Assembly (NCBI GenBank): GCA_040225955.1 | Contig: JBECUL010000040.1 | Coordinates: forward strand, 1-20,245 | DNA length: 20,245 bases | Source: Candidatus Asgardarchaeum abyssi | GTDB taxonomy: Archaea > Asgardarchaeota > Asgardarchaeia > Asgardarchaeales > Asgardarchaeaceae | Reading direction: 5' to 3' | Made by a program: the position numbers and the translations under genes | The notes under the pieces: model-generated | Told to the model about the DNA's origin: nothing | Seen by the model: the letters and a program-made list of their open reading frames with translations, nothing else | The model's database searches: none | Part shown: positions 8,490 to 12,724 of the stretch, in pieces | Layout: each line of letters opens with the position of its first letter | Position numbering within the stretch: position 1 is the stretch's first letter

Positions 8490-8602
8490 TGAAAATGGTA
8501 ACATCCGAAAATGGGTGATTTATAAATGATTTACCATGGGCCTTCAACTCCCAAATGCTAAAACAGTGTTATATCACCTATTCTCAAATGTTACCTGAAA
8601 AT
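8490..8602 (+). mobile_element. Miniature inverted-repeat element, copy A (99 bp, 8497-8595) with 7-bp TSD TGAAAAT
   Basis: Left end GGTAACATCCGAAAATGGGTGAT; reverse complement of right end GGTAACATTTGAGAATAGGTGAT. TGAAAAT occurs at 8490-8496 and at 8596-8602. Confidence 0.8.
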
Positions 8603-8605
8603 TAA

Positions 8606-8620
8606 CGAAAAGTTTTTTTA
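8606..8620 (+). promoter_or_regulatory. Putative BRE/TATA upstream of aglB
   Basis: CGAAAAG followed by TTTTTTTA, a purine-rich BRE and T-rich TATA-like box, about 90 nt before the aglB ATG. Confidence 0.4.
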
Positions 8621-8708
8621 TGGATCATTAATCAAAACATAATAACACCTAGGCATTCATCACATTCATTTATCTTCATTGTTTTCAGTGAGATTTGGAG
8701 TTGATTAT

Positions 8709-12514: not shown

Positions 12515-12576
12515 TTTTACTGTCCTCCGAAAAGGCTAAAAAATTGTATTAAATTCCACTTATTAATCTTATGGTT

Positions 12577-12724
12577 AGGATGCGGTAACGTCAGAAAATA
12601 GATGATGCACCAAATATATGATTCGCCACCACCTCGCGTGGGCGTTTCTTTTGTTCTGGGGCATACGCTACTTATCGTCGTACCTCCTTTTTAAATCAGC
12701 AATTCTCGGATGTTACCAAGATGC
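12577..12724 (-). mobile_element. Miniature inverted-repeat element, copy B (134 bp, 12584-12717) with 7-bp TSD A(G/A)GATGC
   Basis: Plus-strand left end GGTAACGTCAGAAAATAGATGAT; reverse complement of right end GGTAACATCCGAGAATTGCTGAT. Flanks are AGGATGC (12577-12583) and AAGATGC (12718-12724). The interior is more GC-rich than the host. Confidence 0.78.

Follow-up and report, generated by a model that had tools for sequence, protein, structure and literature searches.

Two mini-elements and their short ORFs

The window, a 20,245-nt stretch of DNA from Candidatus Asgardarchaeum abyssi, is archaeal and carries two MITEs, here termed A and B. MITE A (8497-8595, plus strand) is 99 bp long, has its IRL-like end on the left, and is neighboured by a ZPR1-like gene and by aglB/STT3. 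Its left terminal inverted repeat, together with a TTTATAAA box at 8519-8526, occupies 8497-8526 on the plus strand, and its right terminal inverted repeat (8573-8595, minus strand) reads GGTAACATTTGAGAATAGGTGAT on that strand. The element is bounded by a perfectly matching target-site duplication of 7 bp, TGAAAAT, with the left copy at 8490-8496 and the right copy at 8596-8602, and when folded it forms a long hairpin (z = -4.8). A 16-nt end motif matched the window four times against 0.23 matches expected, a significant excess, and an Rfam search of the window returned no match. As judged by eye, about 17 nt separate the outer tip of A from a T-rich TATA-like run ahead of aglB (8596-8625).

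We found ten A-type copies in the genome, nine of them beyond the window copy and near-identical to it, and 12 or more in JGI metagenome contigs. Most of the genomic copies are flanked by target duplications of 7-8 bp (TGAAAAT, TTTTGTGG, CTAACGCC and ATTTATTA, among others). Diverged MITEs of the same family also occur as a cluster of nested or tandem units (C46:14740-15190 of the genome, G000; L037:950-1390; L040:240-582); these units measure 99-100 bp, have the same ends and are about 70% identical to type A.

MITE B (12584-12717, minus strand) is 134 bp long and has gins51 and rpl44e as neighbours. Its IRL (12695-12717, minus strand) is followed by a TTTAAAAA box (12695-12688), and its IRR lies at 12584-12606 on the plus strand. 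The left flank, AGGATGC (12577-12583), is an imperfect duplicate (6/7) of the right flank, AAGATGC (12718-12724). Contig L025 carries an identical copy of B at the same site. Again judged by eye, the IRR tip of B and the ATTAATAA stretch ahead of rpl44e are about 15 nt apart (12540-12583).

Each MITE holds a short ORF, located exactly where the original prediction had placed it. ORF A (8536-8598, plus strand) runs for 20 codons from the ATG at 8536, ends in YHLFSNVT and is closed by a TGA (8596-8598) that the right copy of the target duplication supplies. ORF B (12575-12664, minus strand) has 29 codons and ends in HHLFSDVTAS. The final eight codons that the two ORFs have at the common end differ at six bases, in codon positions 1, 3, 3, 3, 1 and 3, and the opposite ends read in the same phase give NHPFSDVT and NQQFSDVT, both as had been reported. 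On this basis it had been proposed that the terminal repeat is or was protein-coding, either as the C terminus of a parent transposase running through the right inverted repeat or as a constant tag on variable micro-peptides.

The parent insertion sequence and its transposase

The ends of A and B match the ends of four full copies of one insertion sequence (IS), found on contigs L017, L018, L019 and L028, and the two MITEs, which previously had no assigned parent, are thereby tied to their IS. The IS is 1341 bp long, with 23-bp ends beginning GGTAACATC and target duplications of 7-8 bp, which are less clearly seen beside the full copies than around A-type copies. Contig L017 consists of exactly one full IS of 1341 bp, from GGTAACATCC to GATGTTACC, with its gene at 54-1334, and the other three copies have the same layout. 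A single ORF starting at IS base 54 encodes a transposase of 426 aa. At the left end, a TTTAAAAA/TTTATAAA box occupies element bases 23-30, about 27 nt before the transposase ATG. The spacing from this box to the ATG would fit an archaeal TATA box with a leaderless mRNA.

The two MITEs relate to this IS in different ways. The left end of A corresponds to the IS end over 26 of 26 nt with one mismatch, the 23-bp inverted ends are common to A and the IS, and the sequence in common is limited to the left end of about 26 nt and the right repeat of 23 nt. The core of A between these two IS-derived ends is unrelated to the IS. The TTTATAAA box of A is the counterpart of the TATA-like box of the IS and could have a promoter role. 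By blastn against the four full copies, B is composed of IS bases 1-69 (12717-12649) joined through an 11-nt filler to IS bases 1288-1341 (12637-12584), and the nearest full copy is L018, at 93% and 91% identity for the two parts. In B the TTTAAAAA box stands 24 nt upstream of the kept ATG (12664), and this left end is predicted to provide a promoter and a leaderless start. The ATG and first five codons of ORF B (MPQNK) are the transposase's own (cf. P0003), and the rest is out of frame with the transposase C terminus; at the IRR, the transposase frame still gives ASSIF followed by TGA. B goes back to an internal deletion in the IS, by which the start codon of the transposase was fused to the final 54 nt in a different frame.

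The genome itself (189 contigs, 34% GC) holds only IS ends, located at contig breaks, with at least four right-end and at least five left-end junctions. These junctions make a source of transposase in the same genome plausible. One break, on contig C16, keeps 439 nt of the IS left end, in which the first 128 residues of a zinc-ribbon/HTH protein are encoded, and a search for longer proteins yielded relatives of this fragment with 426-427 aa. Among 40 genomes of the same phylum, a DNA search found the IS end in G000 alone. Scanning species-representative genomes with the end pattern gave a single match, in a Clostridia MAG, no more than was estimated from pattern length and database size, and tblastn of the transposase against plasmids gave no match. 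The genome additionally contains a decayed IS derivative of 437 bp (C34:706-1142), in which what remains of the transposase gene can be recognized as its N-terminal and FPNAIHV regions, interrupted by stops.

The transposase combines an N-terminal zinc ribbon of IS1/IS1595 type, an HTH and a DDE core. In 22 transposase sequences, D142 and D199 never vary and E373 is present in at least 90%; the second D and the E are set apart by a basic insertion of about 90 residues. In an AF2 model (pLDDT 79), the best fold match was the IS256-family ISCth4 transposase, followed by retroviral integrases. The D, D, E triad and the RNase H-like fold of the model identify it as a transposase of the DDE (RNase H-fold) type. 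No family in Pfam or NCBIfam scored above its cut-off; the best profile matches were ISL3 (E = 4.5e-9) and IS1, sub-threshold in NCBIfam, and more distant representatives also match IS6. At E <= 0.001, a set of 1.84 billion proteins contained just 72 cluster representatives of the family. The parent IS thus belongs to a rare family, unnamed in Pfam and NCBIfam, that is active in an uncultured archaeon.

Two named families were considered and rejected. Like the transposases of ISL3, IS1 and IS256, this one has a zinc ribbon, an HTH and a DDE core in a single ORF, with ends that begin with GG and duplications of about 8 bp. Unlike them, it has no Pfam family and carries the basic insertion of about 90 residues, and its scores are far below curated cut-offs. 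Against ISL3 the model NF033550 gave 35.9 bits (cut-off 180) and PF01610 gave E = 0.05, and membership in ISL3 was rejected on the distance from the curated cut-off. ISH6 had first been suspected from its GGT ends, 8-bp duplication and length of about 1.4 kb; compared with the ISH6 transposase of pNRC200, hhalign returned a probability of 1.8% and BLASTP E = 3.2, and this membership was likewise rejected.

Reading frames through the right inverted repeat

The claim that the terminal repeat is protein-coding was borne out for the right repeat of the IS, in a different frame from the one proposed. In all four full copies the transposase ends in GASPIL-TGA or GASPIF-stop, with a stop codon that falls within the right inverted repeat and ends 7 nt short of the tip. 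The ORF therefore enters the repeat, spanning 16 of its 23 nt, as had been suggested for a parent transposase; it does not run through to the tip, and its frame is one base off the HLFSDVT frame, such that the third positions of HLFS are first positions of the transposase. The right-end junctions of the genome itself give the same C terminus, VANHVFGASPIL followed by a stop. Followed inward from the tip of the full IS, the HLFSDVT frame meets a stop at a distance of 19 codons.

A transposase stop within the right repeat is shared with ISH6 of Halobacterium pNRC200 (L046:1565-3001), where the transposase TAG (L046:2985-2987) falls within the right repeat CTCTAGACCGCTTTGCGAC. Unlike in ISH6, to which the present IS has no detectable sequence relationship, the stop is polymorphic (TGA or GGA) within one genome. 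A stop in the right repeat was reportedly described by Mahillon and Chandler in 1998 as a common IS layout. A repeat that encodes the last transposase residues is a textbook arrangement and belongs to ordinary MITE and IS biology; what is new here is membership alone, that is, an IS family unnamed in Pfam and NCBIfam together with its MITEs in an uncultured archaeon.

The stop polymorphism is a small curiosity in itself. Among four intact right-end junctions of G000, two (C81:1-134 and C114:5200-5333) have GGA in place of the TGA seen in the junctions compared with them (C14:44376-44509 and C119:4807-4940); repeat position 10 is then C, as in the left repeat. In these GGA variants the transposase continues past the tip into the flank, by GCYL and a stop in C81 and by at least 23 residues in C114.

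Read-through of this kind is the one observation that would favour HLFSDVT as a relic of an ancestral transposase C terminus that once read through the tip, with the present frame as a later shift. The read-through in C81 and C114 proceeds in the SPIL frame (SPILGCY), however, and not in that of HLFS. Transposase relatives at 75, 67 and 41% identity are all in the SPI[LF] frame as well; in the last of these (L020) the protein ends KSPIF-TAG, with the stop 8 nt from the tip. A more distant relative, L021, has different repeats, and its transposase stops at the inner edge of the repeat. Furthermore, the search that had been suggested for a transposase ending in HLFS[DN]VT found none: the motif is absent from 76 retrieved proteins, not one of which has a long ORF ending in H-x-F-S-D-V-T, and it ends no long ORF in the genome. 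In a six-frame translation of the genome it occurs 28 times, each time at one of these ends and after no more than 21 open codons. We therefore regard an ancestral tail as exceedingly improbable.

The left repeat has the same sequence as the right one and is non-coding, which indicates that the peptide tail follows from the repeat sequence rather than shaping it. The end sequence is free of stops in two of its three frames, one of them the HxFSDVT frame, and H-x-F-S-D/N-V-T accordingly appears in any ORF that leaves in this first frame; the 'tag' of the short ORFs comes from the openness of the end in that frame. A tempting false lead is thereby removed, in that a peptide 'tag' common to the ends of mobile elements can come purely from shared end DNA.

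Coding potential of the short ORFs and the nature of the MITEs

Frame conservation across copies, which the original prediction had put forward as a test, was evaluated in an alignment of 21 close A-type copies, of which the genome supplied 9 and JGI contigs 12, with three diverged copies kept out of the counts; many of these copies occupy orthologous sites in related strains and hence are non-independent. Within the 60 nt of ORF A, we found 15 substitution variants, which fall 5/5/5 over the codon positions and comprise 5 synonymous and 10 non-synonymous changes. The pN/pS ratio was 0.61 in the ORF A frame and 0.57 and 0.91 in the two control frames, which contain stops. Variant density was equal in the ORF and in the non-ORF part (15/60 within ORF A vs 9/39 upstream). 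Seven of the 21 copies are frameshifted, six by a 2-nt deletion that brings a stop at codon 8 and one, in C14, by a 1-nt insertion. Among 27 distinct end sequences, variants are distributed 10/9/7 by HLFS phase, with hot spots at repeat positions 9, 10, 13 and 17, and it is to the hot-spot positions 10 and 13 that the 'synonymous' changes between A and B can be traced. Four of the six A-B differences at one codon position correspond to P = 0.10, before correcting for frame choice. When the interior was shuffled and the ends were kept fixed, 56-66% of elements had an ATG-led ORF of at least 15 codons reading out of one end. The coding signal of the A and B ORFs is no more than chance; a pN/pS below 1, from 15 variants only, leaves room for weak constraint on ORF A. 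The two outcomes that the original prediction had named as refuting it, a motif that ends no transposase and copies that lack a third-position bias, are the ones observed.

These counts bear directly on whether the MITE carries a genuine micro-peptide gene in its A-type ORF, one whose constant tail would come from the inverted repeat and whose end would depend on where the element inserted. All 21 close copies have the ATG, 14 of them with a frame that stays open as far as the tip, and the ratio of 0.61 by itself would be compatible with such a gene. Against it stand the similar control frames, the even distribution over codon positions, the frameshifts in a third of the copies, and the lack of the ORF in all three diverged copies (TAA at codon 4 in L037 and L040, no ATG in C1). 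Moreover, the stop lies in unrelated flanking DNA, which makes the length of the product vary from site to site. The ATG of A, at element base 40, also lies downstream of the TATA-like box (bases 23-30) and upstream of the transcript start predicted near base 54, such that the element's own promoter would miss it. A constant tag on micro-peptides is likewise not supported, given that independent derivatives leave the end in other frames (b for L040; a and c for the 437-bp element on C34). A micro-peptide gene is therefore very improbable. We give equally little credence to the broader idea that the A-type and B ORFs are truly translated into micro-peptides with a repeat-encoded tail and insertion-site-dependent endings; if they were, they could represent raw material for new genes or a transposase decoy. 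ORF B taken alone may well be translated even if useless, with the TATA-like box and start codon of the transposase that it keeps.

Another possibility is that the ORFs are irrelevant and that the MITEs act as mobile promoters, with the left-end TATA-like box driving aglB in the case of A and rpl44e in the case of B. Both MITEs in the window aim at the start of the next gene, across gaps of 83 and 69 nt, and in the IS the TTTAAAAA/TTTATAAA box precedes the transposase ATG at promoter-like spacing. Over the ten scorable genomic copies, however, orientation is even, with five directed toward a start and five toward a 3' end, and both aglB and rpl44e have AT-rich boxes of their own between the MITE and the start codon. 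A promoter function for these elements is thus unlikely.

Taken together, these results make it very probable that A and B are non-coding MITEs, non-autonomous deletion derivatives of the 1341-bp IS, and that their ORFs are by-products that are not selected. In the mechanism that we propose, the parent is the IS with its one 426-aa zinc-ribbon/HTH/DDE transposase, whose gene extends from base 54 to the TGA in the right repeat, and the right repeat encodes the last transposase residues, S-P-I-L/F. The MITEs would retain just the ends that the transposase recognises, and A and B would presumably be mobilised in trans by it. A short ORF that arises by chance and leaves in the stop-free HxFSDVT frame would then carry the 'tag'.

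MITEs with short ORFs at their ends have been described before. MITEAba12, which derives from ISAba12, has short frames led by a start codon at its ends that are able to fuse with neighbouring genes (PMC6382973). Like MITEAba12, the present elements are about 100-130 bp long, have the ends of a co-resident IS and target duplications, lack a transposase and occur in many intergenic copies; unlike it, they reside in an archaeal host, their parent IS is of an unnamed family, and two structurally different derivatives, A and B, are built on one set of ends. As cited in PMC6382973, Delihas (2007) proposed short ORFs in small mobile sequences (non-autonomous elements) as raw material for new peptides. 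In contrast to the elements of that proposal, the A and B ORFs are intergenic and without constraint.

Finally, we observed that copies of the MITE at the same site in related strains diverge far more than their flanks. Such same-site pairs are C16:35585-35681 and L034:2210-2308, C20:34554-34651 and L024:11914-12009, and the window copy at 8497-8595 and L025:4413-4511. Between C16 and L034 there are about 8 differing positions and a 2-nt indel per 99 nt, against 1 difference per 90 nt in the flank. The 2-nt deletion of A-type copies is found again on different backgrounds, and in L033 and L024 the flanks are rearranged directly at the MITE. The divergence at same sites suggests either that copies undergo gene conversion with one another or that a single site received insertions more than once.
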